Below are positions 430 through 63,125 of a stretch of DNA of 64,000 nucleotides, piece by piece. The notes under the pieces were generated by a model that searched no databases, had not been told where the DNA came from, and saw only the letters and a list, made by a program, of their open reading frames with translations. Position 1 is the stretch's first letter; each line of letters begins with the position of its first letter. The DNA lies in the NCBI GenBank assembly GCA_951406725.2, contig OX597815.1:124992001-125056000 (forward strand), given 5' to 3'. The translations under genes were made by a program, and so were the position numbers. Source of the DNA: Octopus vulgaris. Its lineage: Eukaryota.

Positions 430-1470
430 TTGTGAAATATATGATAGACACTAGAACATTTAAGCAATGACAGACTATATTCTGAAGTGACAGATACAAC
501 CACGACCAGGATTGAGAACCGAATTAACACTGCATAGACTGACATTTGTAGACGGAGACAACTACATAACAAATACAAGAACAACTTCATCCCAAAGAAC
601 AGCAGATTATCCAGATTCTATCACCTCATTAAAATACACAAGGATAGCAACACGATCCGGATTAGAACCATCGTCTCCAGTGTAGAAGGACTTCTATATA
701 AAATATCCTGGCTACTTTCTCACATCCTGAAACCCATACTCTTCACCTTTCCTGGACACGTCAAGAACTCTGATGAAGTCATCAAAAGACTGCGCCGACT
801 TCCCCCAGACCAACTCAGGCAAAACAGATATGCATTTAGTTTTGGCGTTGTCTCAATGTACATAATGGTACCAGCACACTCGGCGGTCAACCTATTGACT
901 GACTGCATAGTAGCGTCCGACATCCACTGCTTCGGACTTACCGCAGCTGATATACATCAACTTTTGTCCGCCATCATGGACAATACCTACTTCTCTTTCC
1001 ATGACCACACATACAAACAGACAACAGGCCTCTCCTGGGATCCAGTCTCTCAGGCCTACTAGCCATCACCCATATGAACCATCTGGAACGTCGAGCACTC
1101 AACATCTGCCGCTCATGCGCCTTATTCACCAGGTACGTAGATAACATCCTCATATTCACACCCTTCCCGTGGAGTGGCTGACAGAATATTCACGACGTTC
1201 AACAACATGGACATGAGCATACAGTTCACTATAGAACATCATGACAACACTGGATCACTATCGCTACTTGACTTCCAACTGAAAATAACGGAAGAAGGAG
1301 AGTTCCACACCGAGTTCTACAGGAAAGCGGCCAGTAGAGATATGTTTGTCCAGTACAGTTCAGCACTTCCACAAAAAGAACCGGAAAAAGGAAAAAGACT
1401 TCAATTCAATCCCAAGTGCCTCAATTGGTCGCACGCCACAGGGTTCAACAGAACCTACTGAAGCAACGGA
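430..1470 (+). mobile_element. Penelope-like element reverse transcriptase remnant (frameshifted)
   Basis: Frame from 601 reads SRFYHLIKIHK..IRTIVSS..LLSHILKP..HVKNS..SFGVVSMY (SFDV.SLY motif), then NTYFSF....YKQTTGL, frameshifted RYVDNIL (YVDD motif), FTIE..LSLLD..FYRK. These are typical PLE RT motifs. Confidence 0.85.
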
Positions 1471-34973: not shown

Positions 34974-36362
34974 ACTTAGATAACTTAGATATGTTTCGAC
35001 CAAAGATTGGTCCAGGCCATGTCTAACTTAATAGCACCACCTGATAGGATTATTCGAATCCTGTTTAAGTCAAGTTTTGTTCAAGTAGTGAGTCCATGTT
35101 GGGTGAGTTGTATCAAGTTTTGTTCAAGTAGTGAGTTCTTGTTGGGTGAGTTGTATCCAATTATGGGTGGCTTATCTGGTATTCTTTGAAGGAATCTATC
35201 CAGACTCCGTTTAAAGTTGATGGGATCCTCTTCCTCTTTGATCCCCCTCGGGACAATGTTAAATAGGGCAGGACCTATTGAGGAAAAGAAATTATGTTGC
35301 AGTGTACATGTTTGTTGTGATCTTGAATTGGGCAGGGGACGTATGGCCCGTGGTCCCAGTCTTGGATGAACCTTGAAGCTAATGTTAAGGTCGTTTGGGC
35401 AAAGTTGGCGGTATATTCTCCACATCGTACAAATGATGTACCGCTCACGGCGACGCTGGAGGGAGTAAAGTTTCAAGGCTTTAAGGCGATCCCAATAATC
35501 GAGAGCAGCCATGCCTTCAATTCGTTTAGTGAGTGCCCTCTGGGGTGACTCAATTCTGGAGATGTTTTGTCTTGTATGGGGAGACCACAGTGGGCAGCAG
35601 TATTCAAGGTGTGGCCGTACAAAGGAGGAGAAAAGTGGTATGATGACACCTTGTTCTCTGGACCGGAAAGTTCTTAAGATCCAGGAACTCATCCTACGAG
35701 CTATATCGACCTTCTTGTTGATGTGTGCACTCCAACTGAGATCGTCATCAACAATTACACCCAGGTTTCTGATATTGTTAGAGGCTGTGAGCGGTTCCCC
35801 TGAAGGAAGAGAGTATGGTTGTTTTAGTGAGGAATTACTTCCAAAATGCATCAGCTCAAATTTTCCCTCATTCAGTTGCATTTTGTTTCTGTCTGCCCAT
35901 TGACTCATAGCATATAGATCAGACTGGAGTTGAGTTCGGTCTGCTTCTTCATTGACGATTTGCTGGAGCTTAGTGTCATCAGCAAATATTTTCCTTTGCA
36001 GTAATGTACGACACTGGAAAGGTCGTTTATGTAAATTATGAAGAGTAACGGACCCAAAACAGTCCTCTGGGGAACACCGCTGGTGACTTTTGCTGGGCTT
36101 GAGTGGACTCCATCAACTACAACATGTTGTGTTCTATTCGCCAGGAAATACTTAATCCAGTGTAGAACTTTTCCACGGATTCCAACATTTGCCAATTTTG
36201 AGAGTAGGATATTATGATCTACCCTGTCGAACGCTTTACTGAAGTCAAGATATATGACGTCAGAGTTCGAACCTGTTCCCAAGGCTTTGAGTACATCTTC
36301 AATGTGGTGTAAGAGCTGTGTTAGACAGTCCCTGCCACAGCGAAAGCCATGCTGATTTGCAT
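34974..36362 (-). mobile_element. CR1-clade LINE, 5'-truncated, RT with one frameshift
   Basis: QHGFR, YLDFSKAFDRVDH, SGVPQ(R)TVLGPLLF..YIND, KIFADDTKL after the frameshift, VRPHLEYC..LWSP, LYSLQRRRER. 3' hairpin gaccaatctttggtc and (TATCTAAG)n tail. Confidence 0.93.
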
Positions 36363-36479
36363 TTAGGAGTATTAAAGGGAAAATGTCTTTTGAATTGTTA
36401 AATATTTTGTAAAAGACCTGTTCGTAATCTCGGAGTGAAATAGTTTTTTCTATAGCTATTGTTTTCGAGTGCATTCAAC

Positions 36480-45491: not shown

Positions 45492-45541
45492 AACACAACG
45501 TTTCGGCTGATATACCCCCACCCCAGCCTTCATCAGGTGTC
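45492..45541 (-). ncRNA. Minimal type I hammerhead ribozyme
   Basis: GACAC-CTGATGA-A-GGCTG-loop-CAGCC-GAAAC-GTT-GTGTT. Stems I and II pair, and stem III is the loop-less palindrome ACGT. Confidence 0.82.
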
Positions 45542-45843: not shown

Positions 45844-45889
45844 GACACCTGATGAAAGCTGGAGGGTATATCAGCCGAAACGTTGTGTT
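45844..45889 (+). ncRNA. Minimal type I hammerhead ribozyme
   Basis: GACAC-CTGATGA(45849-55)-A-AGCTG-gagggtatat-CAGCC-GAAAC(45877-81)-GTT-GTGTT; G10.1 is changed to A in this copy. Confidence 0.75.
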
Positions 45890-53709: not shown

Positions 53710-54195
53710 GATTATAATTGTAACGGCAATGATGGCCGTCTCCCCACGAGCCAATCAAAGCTCAAAAATGATAACATTATCGTAGCACCAAAATGTTTTT
53801 GGAAACTAAAAGGAAAACTAAATCAGTATACCAAATCGCTTGTCCTATGGTTAATCTGGAAGCGCGTCCCCCAGGGAAGAGCCAGCCTGAGATCAAAAAG
53901 TCATCAACTGGCACAAACTCTTCTCCAAATACGGACATGGATGGTCACTTGAACGGGAAATTCCCCAACTCGAGCCCTTCAAGTTCACCACCACAACCAC
54001 CACAGAAAGAAAAATGAAGCGGAACAAATGGACCCGAGAAGAGTATAAAGAAGTAATATACGCTTATTACTATGCATTAGGTCGGCCATCTCAAGAGAGA
54101 CACACTGCAAACTCTTACAGTATATGGAGAACATGGAATCAAGACAGTAGGCCCTATTTGGACGAGAACAAATTGGCAAATGTAAGGAGGGATAT
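53710..54195 (+). mobile_element. 5' part of an R4/Dong-like non-LTR element
   Basis: RNKWTREEYKEVIYAYY...P...Y.IW...DENKLANVRRDI resembles the N-terminus of R4/Dong ORFs (recognised by eye). Confidence 0.5.
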
Positions 54196-54812
54196 TTGGC
54201 CAGTCCAATTGTGGTTGTTTTGTAAACTAGTTCAAATTGGATCAGGCCTCGACCTCCTTGGGCTCTGGGAAGGTAAAGGCAATCTACGTCTGCCTTTGGG
54301 TGGTGCATCCTATTACAACTCAGCAGCTTGCATATTTTCCTATCTATATTCTTTACTTCATTCATATTCCAGTTCAACACATTGTAGCTATAAGTAACAA
54401 CTGGAACTGCTAAGGAATTTATAGCTAACACCTTGTTACGTGCATTTAGTTCAGATTTCAGGACTGCACGAACTCTCCTATAACATTCCTTCCTGATCTT
54501 CTCTTTCATGCTTGCATGCTGAATACCAGAGCCTTCATTTATCCCTAAATATTTGTATGTTTGTTCTTGCTCAAGCTCTCTTATGACTGTGTCAACATCT
54601 AACACGACTGAATTTGTGGTCTTCACTTTCCTTTTCTGGAAAGTGGCCTTGGCACACTTCTCAAGCCCAAACTCCATCCCGATGTCATCGCTGAATGCTT
54701 TCACAGTGCGCAATAGGCCTTCAAGTTCATTATCGTCTTTACCATAGAGTTTTAAGTCATCCATATAAAATAGATGGCTTATTTTTTTATTGGCAATTTT
54801 ATACCCATACCC
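54196..54812 (-). mobile_element. R4/Dong-like RT fragment
   Basis: ISHLFYMDDLKLY, FSDDIGMEFGLEKCA, YKYLGI, LNARNKVLAINSLAVPV, LYLPRAQGGRGL. Confidence 0.85.
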
Positions 54813-57800
54813 TGATGTGAGAACTATTACTACCCATGTATTTTAATTTAACTTTAAAAAAAAAAAAAATGATCTAGTGAGTTTAGTTTAATGGCCTACC
54901 AATGTATACTATGAGTTGTTTGCCCTAGGAGTCGGGAAGACACTCGGCAAGTTTGAAAGAAGAAAAAAAAAGATAATAATAATAATAATAATAATAATAG
55001 AAATAGAAATATCTATCCACTCTAACCAACATATTGAATTCTATATAGATGTTTGCATTATGTAAATATATGTAAAATATACATAAATGAATATTTAACA
55101 ATATATTCAATACTATATATATATATGTCGTCATCATCATCATTTAACGTCCGTCTGCCATGCTAGCATGGGTGGGATCAGCTTTGTATTCATATGGCAA
55201 CTTAGATTTCTACTTTTAATTTAAATAGTTCTTCTTATATTGTCACAAAATATTTGGTGTTTGAAAGTAACACCAAATATTTTATGGCATTCATTGAACA
55301 TAAAAATTTTCAGAACCACCAAATTAGGTAGCTATATACGGTATCTTGTCTTATATTTTATTGTCATCACTTCTCTTTGGCCATAAAATGAAGCTAACAG
55401 TTTTTATTCTTCAGCAATTCAAATGCATTCCTTTGATTATAAACAATCCAAGTAATTTTTAATTAAAATAACTTGTGAAGAAAATATTCAAACATCCTTC
55501 CTTAAAAACAATAACAGTAGTTAATATAAAAATATGATAATAGTTACTTATTTTGACTACATGTAAAACTGAATCTGAAAGAAACAATACACTTATTTTA
55601 TCAACTCCAGAGGAATAAAAATCGATTTTAACAGGTGTTGAACCAGGACATAAAAGCATAACTAAACACTGATTTCTAATATAGAGACAAAAGATCACAA
55701 ATTTGGTGGGACAGATCTATTGAATATTAAATTAAATATTGGTATTTAATTTAGTGGCCAAAGCTGGTGTCTTGTCAATGGCACCAGTGCTGGTAGCATG
55801 TAAAAAGCATCCACTACATTCTTAGAGTTGTTGGCGCTAGGAAGAGCATCCAGCCATAGAAACTATGCCAAACCAGACTGGAACCTAGTGTAGCTCCCTA
55901 GCTTACCAGTATTCAGTCAAACTGTCTAACCCATGCCAGCATGGAAAATGGAAGTTAAATGATGATGATGATGATGAGTATTCTATTTTATCAACCCAGG
56001 AAAATGAGGGACAAAGTTGACCTCAGCTGAAGTTGAACTTAAGAGGCAAAGAACCAGAACAAATACTGCAATCATCATCATCATCATCATCATCAATCCA
56101 ATGTTCAATTTTTTCATACTTCCTTGGTTGATACGGAATTCACTGAGGCTGATTTTCTACAGCCAGGTACCCTTACTGTTACCCTCCTCACCTGTTTCCA
56201 AGCAAGATATTATTTCCCCCATCACCTGACATGGTTTTGCATCATGGGAAACCAGAAACAAATGACACCACATATGTGATAGGAGTTTTTTAAAGTATTG
56301 CACACAATGTGAAGACAAGAAGGCACATGCATGATTGGTTTCTTTCTGTTTCTGTCAACCAAATCAACTCACAAAACTTTGATTGTAATATAGAGTAGTA
56401 GAGACTTGCCTAGGTGCCACACTATGGGACTGAACCTGAAACCATTAGGTAGGGCAGTATGCCAATACAACAAAATATTCAGTGAATTTGACCCTGCTAT
56501 TTCTAATAACTCTACTACATTAGTACGTGATCACTTTAGACGTAGGACAAATTCATTGAAATGGAATATTGCAAGCAGTTATTCTGACTCGCTAAGAAAA
56601 AAAAAGGTTAAAAGGCAAGGAACATGAAGATATAAGACCAGTGCTCAACTATTTTTACTAACATTCTGTGTTGTATTTTACATATAACACAGAAAGTGTC
56701 AAAAAAATTATCTCCCATGAAAGATAAGGTATATAATTTACTTTAAATGGTTCATTAAAAAAATAATTCATATCAATTTCTGATATTAATTTGATATGTC
56801 CGAAGTTATTTCCCTTGCCTTTTAGCAGTAACAGAGAAATACAAATCAATGATTGAATATTTTAAGCTCAAACCAACAGGAAACTTCAATTAATAGAGTT
56901 TATAAGATCGCTTGATCTGCCAAAATTAGACGTCAAATATTTCTCAAATCTCAGCCTACTATCTATAAAGAAATAACATATTGGATAATTTGTCCTAGAA
57001 ACACTGTCTAAACAAAAAGAAGTGGTGATTATGGCTGGAGTAGCTTGAGCATAGATCTACAGCTAAAAAAATAAAAAATACAAATTCTCTCATTTCAAAT
57101 TGCCAATGAAGTTGTCTCCCTTGAAGTAAAAGTGACATAAGATTAATTCTGAATGATGTTAACTGCTAATAATCTAACGTAAAATGATACCAGTCAGAGG
57201 TGAAAAGTATCAACGTATTCATATATTTTTTTTATTTGATTTTATATTTAAAAAGAAAATTATAAATTAAATGACACCTTCTGATATTTTTTTAATCAAG
57301 GGACAGAGCTTATTATAAGACCACTGGGAGAATATAGGTGATTTTTTTTAATTGCTTAGTAGAAACTACTATAGTTTGTTTTGCGTTTCTTTTGTTAAAA
57401 ATCGATGTGATTAAAGTTTCCACTTTATCTATCATATTCGAAGCAATTTATCTGATATCCCTTTGAATGTAGATTGAATATTTAATTTTTTTTAAATGAT
57501 AAAAACAATTACTTCAAACATGGGCACAAGACCAGAAATTTGAGAGACAGATGTTAGTTGTTTAACTCACCCTAATTCTATCGTTTTAACTTCTACTTTT
57601 CCATTTTTGCAGGGATCAAGCGGGAGCCAGTGAAGCACAGTTGAAGCCCTTCCTGTCGTCAATCCTCACTTGCTTCCAAACAAGGTACTATTTCCAAAAT
57701 GATTGGACAGGCATCCATGGAAGGTTGGAAATGAACAACACTTGTGTAACAGTGAGGCACATTTACAACTATTGTACTATGACGTCAAAAGAAGGAGAGA

Positions 57801-59942: not shown

Positions 59943-60102
59943 CTGGTAATTTTGTGGCTCTGAAAGATGCATTTGTAATGGCAGATTTTGACATGGTTAC
60001 TGAGGAAGATGGGGCTGGAGAAAGTGCTACACCAATTCCCATTGCCGTGTCTGGTTGACCAGAAGGACTATATTTCAAACAGTTACGAACAGCATTTGTG
60101 AC
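59943..60102 (-). CDS. Internal coding exon (160 bp) of the same host gene
   Basis: Acceptor ttctttcag, donor CAG|gtaatt, frame VTNAVRNCLKYSPSGQPD...ATKLP. Ends in phase 1 and joins the terminal exon as GAT (Asp). Confidence 0.8.
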
Positions 60103-60672
60103 CTGAAAGAAATTAAGTATTCCAATTATTGAAAATATATACATGTGTGCGAGTGTGCGTGTATATATATATATATTTATATCATTCCAAACCATGAAAC
60201 TTGTATACAACCAGCTACAGGCAAATAATAACATGCACTATAATAGAACCTAGCAAAACCAAGCTTATTGAGCAAAGTACCTTTTGAAAAGTGACTGACA
60301 AGAGACAGCTATACCATGGGATGCACCACAACCAGTTGTACAGTATCTTACCCATGAGGGATTGATGCAAGATGGGTCAAAGCAATCAATGTAATTAATA
60401 AAGAATCTCTTTTACTCATTTGTTATCATATATGCGCTTGCCAGAACCTCTTCCGTCCCAGCCAGAACAAAGGCTTTCGTTTGTTTTTCTCGTTTGTTTT
60501 CTTGTTTATTTTGATTTCTCGTATTGTATTTTATTTCTCGTTTTATATTTTCTTGTACATGTATTTTTATCTTGTATTTTATTGTGCAGTTTTATTGTTA
60601 CGTCCTGTTTCTGTTACATTTTTTTCGTGCTTGTTTCACCCCTCTGCGAGGTTATTTTATTTTAATTCACTC

Positions 60673-60755
60673 GCAGGAAGGACTAGTATTGACGAGTCGT
60701 GTCCTGTCTTGCCTTCGAAACACGCTAAGTCTACTAGCGACAGCTGATGAAGGGG
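60673..60755 (+). ncRNA. Hammerhead-like pseudoknotted RNA motif, copy 1
   Basis: CTAGTA-TTGACGA-GTCGT...-GAAAC-acgctaa-GTC-TACTAG; the 5' flank pairs with loop II; second CTGATGA at 60744. Confidence 0.55.
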
Positions 60756-61498
60756 ATTTTTCCTTGTGTAGTATGTCCTGTACCTTGTTTTTCTGTTGTA
60801 AATAATGTTTTTCCCGTTTTCGTTCTCGTCCTGTTCCACGTCTCTGTCTTTCTGTTGTAAAAAAATGGCTTTTTCCGTTTTCGTTTCTGTTGAGTTCTAC
60901 GTCTTTTTGTGGTGTCCTGTACGTATATTTATTTATGTATGCATGTATATATACATTTAGATGTAGGTACGTACATATATGTTTGTATGTATGCATATAT
61001 TTTATTTATTACACTATTGTCTGACAGCGCTTCGCGTCGGGTTCGTTCGATTCTTCGCTTCATTCCATTTCTTATCCTCCCAGTATTGTTTTATATAATT
61101 ATGACACGAAATTCTCTCCCTTTGCTTTACCTTCCCCTCTCTCTCTCCCTCTTCTCTCTCTCAGCTGCGTGTCTTCCTCTATCTATCTCTCTCTCTCTCT
61201 CACTCCTCCTCCCTTTTGTCACTGCTAATCCTTTTTGCACATTGCTTTCAAACCGTACAGTCATGTTTCCATGCGCTTGCCAGAACCTCTTCCGTCCCAG
61301 CCAGAACAAAGGCCTTCATTTGTTTTCTTGTTTATTTTGATTTCTCGTATTGTATTTTATTTCTCGTTTTGTATTTTCTTGTACATGTATTTTTATCTTG
61401 TATTTTATTGTGCAGTTTTATTGTTATGTCCTGATTGTGTTACATTTTTTTCGTGCTTGTTTTACCCCTCTGCGAGGTTATTTTATTTTAATTCTCTC

Positions 61499-61581
61499 GC
61501 AGGAAGGCCTAGTATTGACGAGTCATGGCCTGTCTTGCCTTCGAAACACACTAAGTCTACTAATGACAGCTGATGAAGGGG
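61499..61581 (+). ncRNA. Hammerhead-like pseudoknotted RNA motif, copy 2
   Basis: Same motif with compensatory substitutions relative to copy 1. Confidence 0.55.
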
Positions 61582-61879
61582 ATTTTTCCTTGTGTAGTAT
61601 GTCCTGTACCTTGTTTTTCTGTTGTAAATAATGTTTTTCCCGTTTTCGTTCTCGTCCTGTTCCACGTCTCTGTCTTTCTGTTGTAAAAAAATGGCTTTTT
61701 CCGTTTTCGTTTCTGTTGAGTTCTATGTCTTTTTGTGGTGTCCTGTACGTATATTTATTTATATATGCATGTATATATACATGTAGATGTAGGTACGTAC
61801 ATATATGTTTGTATGTATGCATATATTTTATTTATTACACTATATATCATATATATATATAAATATATCATCATATATA

Positions 61880-62774
61880 CGAGGTATGATCGATAAGTAT
61901 CCGGACTGTTGCCATAGTAATGAAGCTTCAGCACACAGAGTAAAGATGCTTGACACAGATTGACCTCAGACTCTGCCGTGCATGCACACTAAGTTTTAAC
62001 GTTCTAGCTCACTTTCACTGCTTACAACAGTGCTTGGAAGGATCGTGTGTAGCATGTGATCGTCACATTGACCATGACAGAGAAAGTGGTCATGGTGATA
62101 CTTACTGAGAGCCTTATGCAAAGTTGCAGAAAGTATAGGGAGAGGAGTGTATGAGCAGTACACAAGTGTATGAGTGATTCAGACGTTTCCAAGATGGCCG
62201 GGAAAATGTCGATAGAGATGAACGTTCTGGGAGACCCAAAATTAGCGGAAATGAGAACAACATTGCAGAGGTGCGTGCAGCTACAAGGTGAAATCATTGA
62301 ATCACCATCTATTAGTTAGCAGAGGATGTACAGATTAGTTACAGTCCAGTTCAGTCCATTATCACTGAAGATTTGGATATGAGATGCATGTCTATCAAGT
62401 TTGTGCCAAAACTGCTTTTAGCTGACCAAAAGGACACTTGGGTTTCAGTTGTACAAGACCTCCTTGATTGTGTCGAGAATGATGAAAACTTTTTGAAAAC
62501 ATTGCATGGACCTCTGAGCAGGTTTTGCCAAGCTTTTGGTGAAATTTGATGCAGCTACTCTGCTCAACTTATTCTGTCATGGTCAACACAACGATCACAT
62601 GATACACATGTTCCTTCCAAGCACAGTTGTAAACAGTAGAAGTGAGACAGAACATTAAAACTTAATGCACATGCAGAGCAGAGTCCAAGGTCAATCTGTG
62701 CCAAGCTGCTTTATTCTGCATACTTTAGCTTTGTTACTAAAGTAAAAGTCCGGATTCTTATTGATCAGATCATG
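61880..62774 (+). mobile_element. mariner transposon, internally deleted and decayed
   Basis: TIR cgaggtatgatcgataagtatccggact / agtccggattcttattgatcagatcatg. Transposase remnants FRRFQDGRENVD.DERSGRP and IITEDLDMR...KFVPKLL. Confidence 0.88.
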
Positions 62775-63125
62775 TGTGTGTATATATATATATACATATA
62801 TAAAATCCCACCCCACACAACTCCACACACTAGCACTGACCATTTCCCAGCACCCACACCACACACCATCATCCACACACTTACACATTACAGATGCACA
62901 CACACAGGCAAAATCCACACACATCAAAGTCACTAGCCCCTATCTACACACACACATACTCATATACACACACATGCCTGCACACCTTCGTTTTGGGATC
63001 ATCAATACTTTATTATCTCCCCTTCTTTCTATCTCTTCTGTCAAATCTTTTTTTCCAACCAGTCACCATGCTTGACTGCTAAATCCACAAGTTTTTTTTA
63101 TTCTCTCTGTTTATTTTCTCTTATT

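Follow-up and report, generated by a model that had tools for sequence, protein, structure and literature searches.

A likely self-cleaving hammerhead with S-G-C strand order and a predicted split core in a Penelope-like tandem repeat of Octopus vulgaris

Introduction

The window considered here is a 64,000-nt stretch of the 2.8-Gb genome of Octopus vulgaris (contig OX597815.1, positions 124,992,001–125,056,000 of the forward strand). Near its end, two segments with an identity of about 95% lie in tandem at a spacing of 826 nt. They carry hammerhead-like motifs in an order that raises the question of which strands could build the catalytic fold and where the RNA would be cut. An earlier note had combined three helices, A, B and C, with a TTGACGA core and a cut at 60731, and had offered a pseudoknotted hammerhead-like RNA of unusual topology as one of three options. 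This option agrees with the present analysis. The motifs, their order and their coordinates were found as described there, as were the six differences between the copies (60682, 60699, 60702, 60724, 60737 and 60738, when 60673–60755 is compared with the copy 826 nt downstream).

The motif is likely a self-cleaving hammerhead, and this assignment, made from sequence comparison, is held with good confidence. It would have a non-circular S-G-C order, a core predicted to be split at A9/G10.1 and a four-way junction rejoining this core, and it resides in an ORF-less Penelope-like tandem repeat.

The Locus and Its Two Copies

The insertion and its surroundings comprise the following features:
60432–61841, forward strand: ORF-less Penelope-like repeat insertion in a TA-rich target; a 5'-truncated copy, then head-to-tail a full 826-nt monomer; fixed 3' end, variable 5' ends
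60432–61015, forward strand: first copy, 5'-truncated (monomer positions about 256–826), 94.9% identity to the monomer
61016–61841, forward strand: second copy, the full monomer
60639–60755, forward strand: ribozyme copy 1, all six helices intact, sixth stem II pair lost via A60682
61465–61581, forward strand: ribozyme copy 2, decayed (triplet GGC, stem III 2/5 pairs, tie helix 5/6)
59943–60102, reverse strand: likely host exon of 160 nt with AG...GT ends and an open frame, called from splice signals only

Judging by this exon, the repeat probably lies within an intron, antisense to the host gene, so that the host transcript would not be cut by the ribozyme. The ORF of the exon has no Pfam match.

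The core bases are complete in copy 1, where the sixth pair of stem II is the sole pair lost. In copy 2 the triplet GUC is changed to GGC, which leaves the hammerhead core incomplete. Copy 1 is predicted to be cleavage-competent; copy 2 is predicted to be inactive owing to the GGC triplet and to a stem III reduced to 2/5 pairs. Scanned against Rfam with E up to 5, the window gave 138 matches, 0 of them hammerheads, and those near the locus were only microRNA-like, on TA repeats.

S-G-C Order and Crossing Stems

The strands of the core and of the helix tying stems I and II are arranged as follows:
60683–60688, forward strand: 5' strand of the tie helix (stem I-II tie, 'I' stem, earlier helix C), with the covarying pair 60687/60733
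60698–60708, forward strand: block S; stem III strand 60698–60702, C17 = 60703, stem I strand 60704–60708, predicted cut 60703/60704
60711–60724, forward strand: block G; stem II strand 60711–60716, G12-A13-A14 60717–60719, stem III strand 60720–60724
60732–60737, forward strand: 3' strand of the tie helix, from the family alignment
60739–60750, forward strand: stem I strand 60739–60743 and core CUGAUGA 60744–60750

The whole motif (60639–60755) thus contains GUC at 60701–60703, GAAA at 60717–60720 and CUGAUGA at 60744–60750, and T60702 corresponds to U16.1. Stem III (60698–60702/60720–60724) and stem I (60704–60708/60739–60743) have a crossing order, and the linker between stems I and II is 2 nt long. 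The hammerhead core bases (C3 U4 G5 A6 N7 G8 A9, G12 A13 A14, A15.1-U16.1, H17) are all found in copy 1 and in the family, flanked by stems I–III, which covary, stem II through an upstream strand. The family alignment comprises 68 distinct full-length copies, 25 of which form subfamily B. G12-A13-A14-A15.1, U4, G8 and A9 are invariant in 68/68 copies, while position 17 is C in 62, U in 6 and G in 0.

The S, G, C order with crossing stems and the short stem I-II linker with a tie helix are the features of type-SGC hammerheads, but the uninterrupted block C of that type is not found. The window ribozyme is therefore rated as a predicted hammerhead that acts like type-SGC and fails its unbroken-block-C feature.

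For a wider comparison, 15 family consensuses were built, of which 12 could be parsed and 3 could not; the parser selects the best-pairing registers. Stem I pairs 1–5 are Watson-Crick and stem III pairs 1–4 are paired in 12/12 parsed consensuses, with several pair types per position in both stems. On 18 real copies, 95% of the cells of stems I and III are paired (III 92%, I 98%), with 44 both-sided changes. The pairing score was reached by 0/500 shuffles, and slid registers gave 20–46%. The tie helix has 6 bp in the window motif (60683–60688/60732–60737) and contains a pair that has changed on both sides in a genuinely compensatory way (T-A in 42 copies, C-G in 24); the parser found it with at least 4 bp in 10/12 families and with fewer than 4 bp in 2/12. 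These comparisons show that stems I and III cross and covary, that the predicted upstream strand completes stem II and that the tie helix connects stems I and II at their far ends.

Search patterns in the S-G-C order returned 111 matches (control 3), 2,213 (control 18) and 1,870 (control 95); they required GTH and fixed two of the bases that follow the core. Three additional families were found unselected, in the flanks of fetched loci.

The Type I Reading and Helices A and B

An alternative is a type I hammerhead that has TTGACGA as its core, combines helices A, B and C, and is cut at 60731. Its motifs are present in subfamily A, where helices A and B could also be formed, and helix A appears in the MFE fold once the upstream flank is omitted. 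The key pair of helix A, 60682/60702, is nevertheless a C:U mismatch in 63/68 copies (C:T 63, T:T 2, gap:T 1, A:T 1, C:G 1). A:T and C:G are the window copies only, and the 'double transversion' from A60682:T60702 to C:G, which had been taken as a compensatory change between the copies, resolves into two private mutations from an unpaired C:U. As T60702 is U16.1, the change there in copy 2 destroys the cleavage triplet. Position 60738, also assigned to a compensatory pair, is a C/T polymorphism of the family (60699/60738: G:C 34, G:T 30, A:T 2). G60699A and G60724A are CpG decay, a possibility that the note had raised for the helix-B changes, and they break stem III.

Covariation of helices A and B was sought in the 18-copy alignment, where A is 69% and B 72% paired (together 71%) versus 92% for stem III and 98% for stem I; the comparison for A is rough, its 5' strand being out of register in the sister-family rows. 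Helix A is formable in the window family, and an analogue of −7 kcal/mol or lower occurs in only 4/12 family consensuses. Thus helix C stands, whereas A and B are poorly kept across families, and the proposed gap-free three-way junction of A, B and C falls with them.

The proposed type I core also fails in subfamily B, where TTGACGA is lost (G at 60694 in 0/25 copies, a gap at 60689 in 23). The CTGATGA that had been regarded as a second core is present, and it is the true core rather than a secondary one. The cut is now predicted after C60703 instead of at 60731, and insertion junctions cluster after the 60703-equivalent positions. A type I hammerhead (C-G-S, with CUGAnGA upstream of GAAA) was rejected, since TTGACGA is missing in subfamily B and the pattern CTGANGA..GAAAC has no match at this locus; the type I reading as a whole is hardly credible. 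Helix A may still serve as an off-state in the window family.

A Predicted Split Core and Its Four-Way Junction

In the S-G-C fold preferred here, stem II would be completed by a strand located far upstream of CUGAUGA, and two further helices would bridge the gap:
60639–60643, forward strand: 5' strand of Pext, CCCCT, pairing with 60751–60755 (family alignment, parsed consensuses, folding)
60644–60676, forward strand: hairpin P0, stem 60644–60650/60670–60676, contiguous with Pext and stem II, in the MFE fold
60677–60682, forward strand: upstream strand of stem II, predicted G10.1 = G60677, not following CUGAUGA
60751–60755, forward strand: 3' strand of Pext, AGGGG, directly following A9

Pairs 1–4 of the upstream stem II are Watson-Crick in 12/12 parsed consensuses, and pairs 2–4 show three or four pair types. 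Within the window family, C at 60682 pairs with G60711 of stem II (65/68 copies paired at this position). The P0 pair 60646/60674 is G-C in 42, A-T in 17 and G-T in 7 copies, and compensatory pairs in P0 and the tie helix distinguish subfamily A from subfamily B. Pext has at least 4 bp in 10/12 families, without gaps in 9, and was not recovered in 2/12. In most families Pext, P0, stem II and the core adjoin without an unpaired base. The joint score of stem II, P0 and Pext exceeds all 500 upstream dinucleotide shuffles in 6/12 families; it is equalled by 1–6 of 500 shuffles in five families and by 26/500 in one. One stem II sequence is common to 6/12 families, so the families amount to only about 7 independent lineages. 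In nested MFE folds only Pext, P0 and stem II appear, and stems I and III do not; the z-scores of these folds are just −1.2 to −1.5.

Pext stacked on P0, and stem II stacked on the A9-G12 core, could rebuild a normal active site. The purine-rich family (L128–L157) is the most compact form, with a GAAA loop on P0 and one stem III-tie strand without a linker. A splice-acceptor reading of the YAG before 60677 was rejected, since its AG belongs to hairpin P0 and other families do not have it.

The junction is imperfect in a subgroup of about 10 window-family copies with TT after A9. This subgroup (loci L188, L190, L191, L196, L197, L199, L208 and L209) has still been amplified, so that the first junction pair would be dispensable.

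The same region could be read as an ordinary type-SGC hammerhead. Here the G-run after CUGAUGA would provide G10.1 past one bulged base, together with all of stem II or its first pair, and the upstream strand, P0 and Pext would be accessory elements or a switch. The G at A9+2, a potential G10.1, is present in 11/12 families and pairs with C11.1 in 11/12 consensuses. In the window clade GGGG could pair with CUUC (2 G-C, 2 G-U), and the type I hammerheads at 45500 and 45849 likewise have one extra base after A9. However, the second pair of this downstream register is Watson-Crick in only 2/12 parsed consensuses, and the run gives 1–2 bp in 5/6 families outside the window clade. The same G forms the second pair of Pext and is replaced by T in one family and in the 10-copy subgroup of the window family. 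Covariation between the upstream strand and stem II is seen in each of the parsed families. A stem II strand within 0–2 nt after CUGAnGA was not found, although a single downstream G10.1 would be compatible with the data. The ordinary type-SGC reading is considered unlikely, and the split core is retained.

The split core leaves a geometrical question concerning the tie helix, which is joined to stem III by linkers of 9 and 7 nt in the window motif and of 4 and 0 nt in one family. A kink-turn (3-nt bulge with tandem G-A/A-G pairs between stem III and the tie helix) is absent in both window subfamilies; its standard pattern occurs in 3/12 consensuses and the reversed pattern in 1. A swapped dimer of tandem transcripts is a possible folding unit.

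Insertion 5' Junctions and the Predicted Cut

Insertions would be expected to start frequently at the cut if this is where the template RNA ends. In sister families, 16/95 copies have their 5' junction at −2 to +12 of the predicted cut. The flanking hazard predicts 1.5 (an 11-fold excess, Poisson p about 6e-12), and no other 15-nt window contains more than 5. Among 89 sister-family copies, no junction lies at −17 to −3 and no peak occurs at the 3' edge of the fold. The copies were anchored by a 30-nt motif near the 3' end, and the first 100 of 3,411 matches, all from one contig, were used; three identical duplicates were dropped, and copies that agreed fully over their last 300 nt were counted as one. 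The window family has a weak excess, with 5 of 100 copies listed having junctions within about 10 nt, versus 13 events per 2611 copy-bases upstream. Most junctions are located 5–12 nt past the predicted cut and not on it, an offset from which we infer end loss during integration.

The motif could also be a conserved hammerhead-derived RNA that is non-catalytic or protein-dependent and acts as a signal for binding or processing; the pile-up would then be due to a nuclease, a transcription start or a stop of the reverse transcriptase (RT). Self-cleavage is here predicted from sequence, and the 5–12-nt offset of the junctions would suit such an RNA. In the Anolis Poseidon study, in the part drawn on here, the hammerhead needed protein for cleavage, its cut site was not marked by the ends of RNA-seq reads, and it was dispensable for insertion in vitro (PMC11167929). 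Against this, the catalytic bases are conserved across very divergent families. Moreover, the peak is located 5' of the stem II strand, at a point at which copying of the partner strands would already be complete, and the 3' edge of the fold has no peak. We consider a non-catalytic or protein-dependent role very unlikely, and the pile-up in the sister families is taken as indirect evidence of the predicted cleavage.

The Repeat Family and Its Mobilization

The window segment belongs to a dispersed repeat, with 117 exact matches to a 20-nt core pattern. Its copies have a fixed 3' end and variable 5' ends, are arranged head-to-tail, are often inverted or provided with a tail of about 82 nt, and lie at (TA)n sites. 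Partial tandems, fixed 3' end, 5' truncation, inversions, tail and microsatellite targets together agree with a non-autonomous Penelope-like element; the traits of these copies are those given as Penelope-like by Craig et al. 2021 in the sections drawn on here (PMC8557442). Many insertions (L006, L007, L010, L011, L013, L016 and others) extend about 82 nt past the usual 3' end, versus the 30–40-nt tails described for Penelope-like elements.

The window family yielded no element ORF. In all 30 copies located by their monomer start, what precedes this start is a monomer end and in no case an ORF. Cleavage of tandem transcripts after C60703 would release monomers. A Penelope-type RT acting in trans could then start about 310 nt downstream and often stop near the cut end, and longer insertions could be derived from uncut, multimeric or circularised RNA.

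A search for the Naiad RT motif gave 12 places, all with stops; the split-core architecture lies 2.2–3.1 kb downstream of 3 of these 12 loci, all decayed. One repeat family is close to the published Octopus Naiad consensuses. No sequence homology of the window repeat to a Naiad ORF was found, the Naiad sequences being compared by eye only.

A GIY-YIG search gave 148 matches, and 29 of 30 loci resemble elements with a C-terminal endonuclease. The split motif was absent from the 3' ends of these 30 loci, and BLAST matches to the monomer among them are only separate copies, in 2 loci. Loci L324, L329 and their relatives have many apparently intact 781-aa frames with RT and C-terminal GIY-YIG, without the split motif; at their 3' ends they carry a minimal type I-like motif (U at 3, A at 8) and a CCAAT-rich tandem array. 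We take the element with the many identical 781-aa frames to be Neptune-like, from its linker motif.

Other Features of the Window

Several further features were observed in the window:
538–1062, forward strand: 174-aa frame
35081–36474, reverse strand: LINE-like RT fragment, by eye
45500–45536, reverse strand: type I hammerhead core with an extra A after A9
45849–45881, forward strand: type I hammerhead core with an extra A after A9
53985–54842, reverse strand: LINE-like RT fragment, by eye
61852–62802: 236-nt inverted arms (78%) around a decayed frame, directly after the 3' end of the repeat

The frame at 538–1062 presumably represents a Penelope-type RT fragment, which it resembles by motif; it has no Pfam match. 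The two type I cores, both canonical and in opposite orientation, belong to another Penelope-like family. The element with inverted arms has the look of what we assume to be a Tc1/mariner fossil.

Implications

The CUGAnGA block could be one that is openable at A9/G10.1, with a Holliday-like four-way junction closing the gap, and it would then constitute a fourth hammerhead building block. Cephalopod Naiads, together with the non-autonomous elements derived from them, would have in this form the ribozyme that they seemed to lack, and the form would be a circular permutant of the type-CSG hammerhead of nematode Naiads. This wider reading is held with fair confidence.

If it is true, a single retrotransposon clade contains a whole lineage of reverse-order hammerheads cutting in vivo, recorded by the pile-up of insertion ends, and the hammerhead topology goes beyond the six block orders thought possible. 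It would also be, by the literature searched, the first reverse-order hammerhead in an animal genome, present in thousands of copies. A testable answer is offered to the question of why Naiad retrotransposons appeared ribozyme-less, and an abundant class would have been missed by standard descriptors and Rfam. For engineers, A9/G10.1 would be a natural insertion point inside the core.

Comparison with Known Systems

The literature searched, which covered few subscription papers, gave no account of an animal hammerhead with a split core or a reverse order. Perreault et al. 2011, in the part drawn on here, report core insertions only of single or two bases (PMC3088659). Eckert et al. 2023 state that none of the known hammerhead alignments has a break of more than 1–2 nt between CUGAnGA and the stems (PMC10085705), a point against the split core. 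In the same source, a type-SGC hammerhead with a short stem I-II linker (about 3 nt) and a tie helix cleaves in vitro, and a similar puzzle of tie-helix geometry is noted. Type-SGC (HRIMA-1 and a variant) shares with the window ribozyme the S-G-C order, three crossing stems, a 2–3-nt link, the tie helix and the core bases (PMC10085705). The published type-SGC examples in that portion have an unbroken block C and are metatranscriptome RNAs, none from genomes of known organisms (PMC10085705), whereas the window ribozyme has an upstream stem II strand, P0 and Pext at A9/G10.1, a tie helix joined to stem III on both strands and an animal repeat as its host. Type-CSG, as described there, shares the reverse cyclic order and the place of the tie helix, but its circle is opened elsewhere and it has no four-way junction (PMC10085705).

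Animal non-LTR retrozymes, as far as covered by the parts of the sources used (Cervera and de la Pena 2020, PMC7229834; Li et al., bioRxiv 10.64898/2026.07.22.740005), share non-coding tandems, one hammerhead per monomer and a Penelope-like link. They carry type I hammerheads in monomers of about 200–400 nt, whereas the window repeat measures about 830 nt and carries, once per monomer, a scrambled, split ribozyme of another type.

Naiads, whose ORF combines an N-terminal GIY-YIG with a C-terminal RT, share (TA)n targets, partial tandems and 3' tails with the ORF-less window repeat. In the sections of Craig et al. 2021 drawn on here, Naiads are without a canonical hammerhead, and Naiad_Ovul and Naiad_Esco are marked 'HHR_half_core' (PMC8557442). 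By eye, no split motif was seen at the ends of Naiad-1_Skow or of Naiad_Omin and Naiad_Adux, both listed as incomplete (PMC8557442). In the ostracod Naiad-3_Dst and the preceding entry of File S5, the S, G and C blocks seemingly stand in order, hundreds of bases apart; stems I and III of the ostracod Naiads are plausible and stem II is unclear by eye (PMC8557442). Naiad_Esco has the same block order as the window motif; its stems I and III and its tie helix are perfect, its stem II and Pext imperfect (PMC8557442, File S5). The 3' ends of nematode Naiads (Naiad_Hpol and the preceding File S5 entry, which is Naiad_Hcon by the order of File S1) are by eye of type CSG, with an unbroken core and long tie helices (PMC8557442). 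This arrangement would make them, as judged by eye, a circular permutant of the window design. The 3' ends of Naiad_Ovul and Naiad_Obim, inspected by eye in File S5, have the same architecture as the window motif (PMC8557442).
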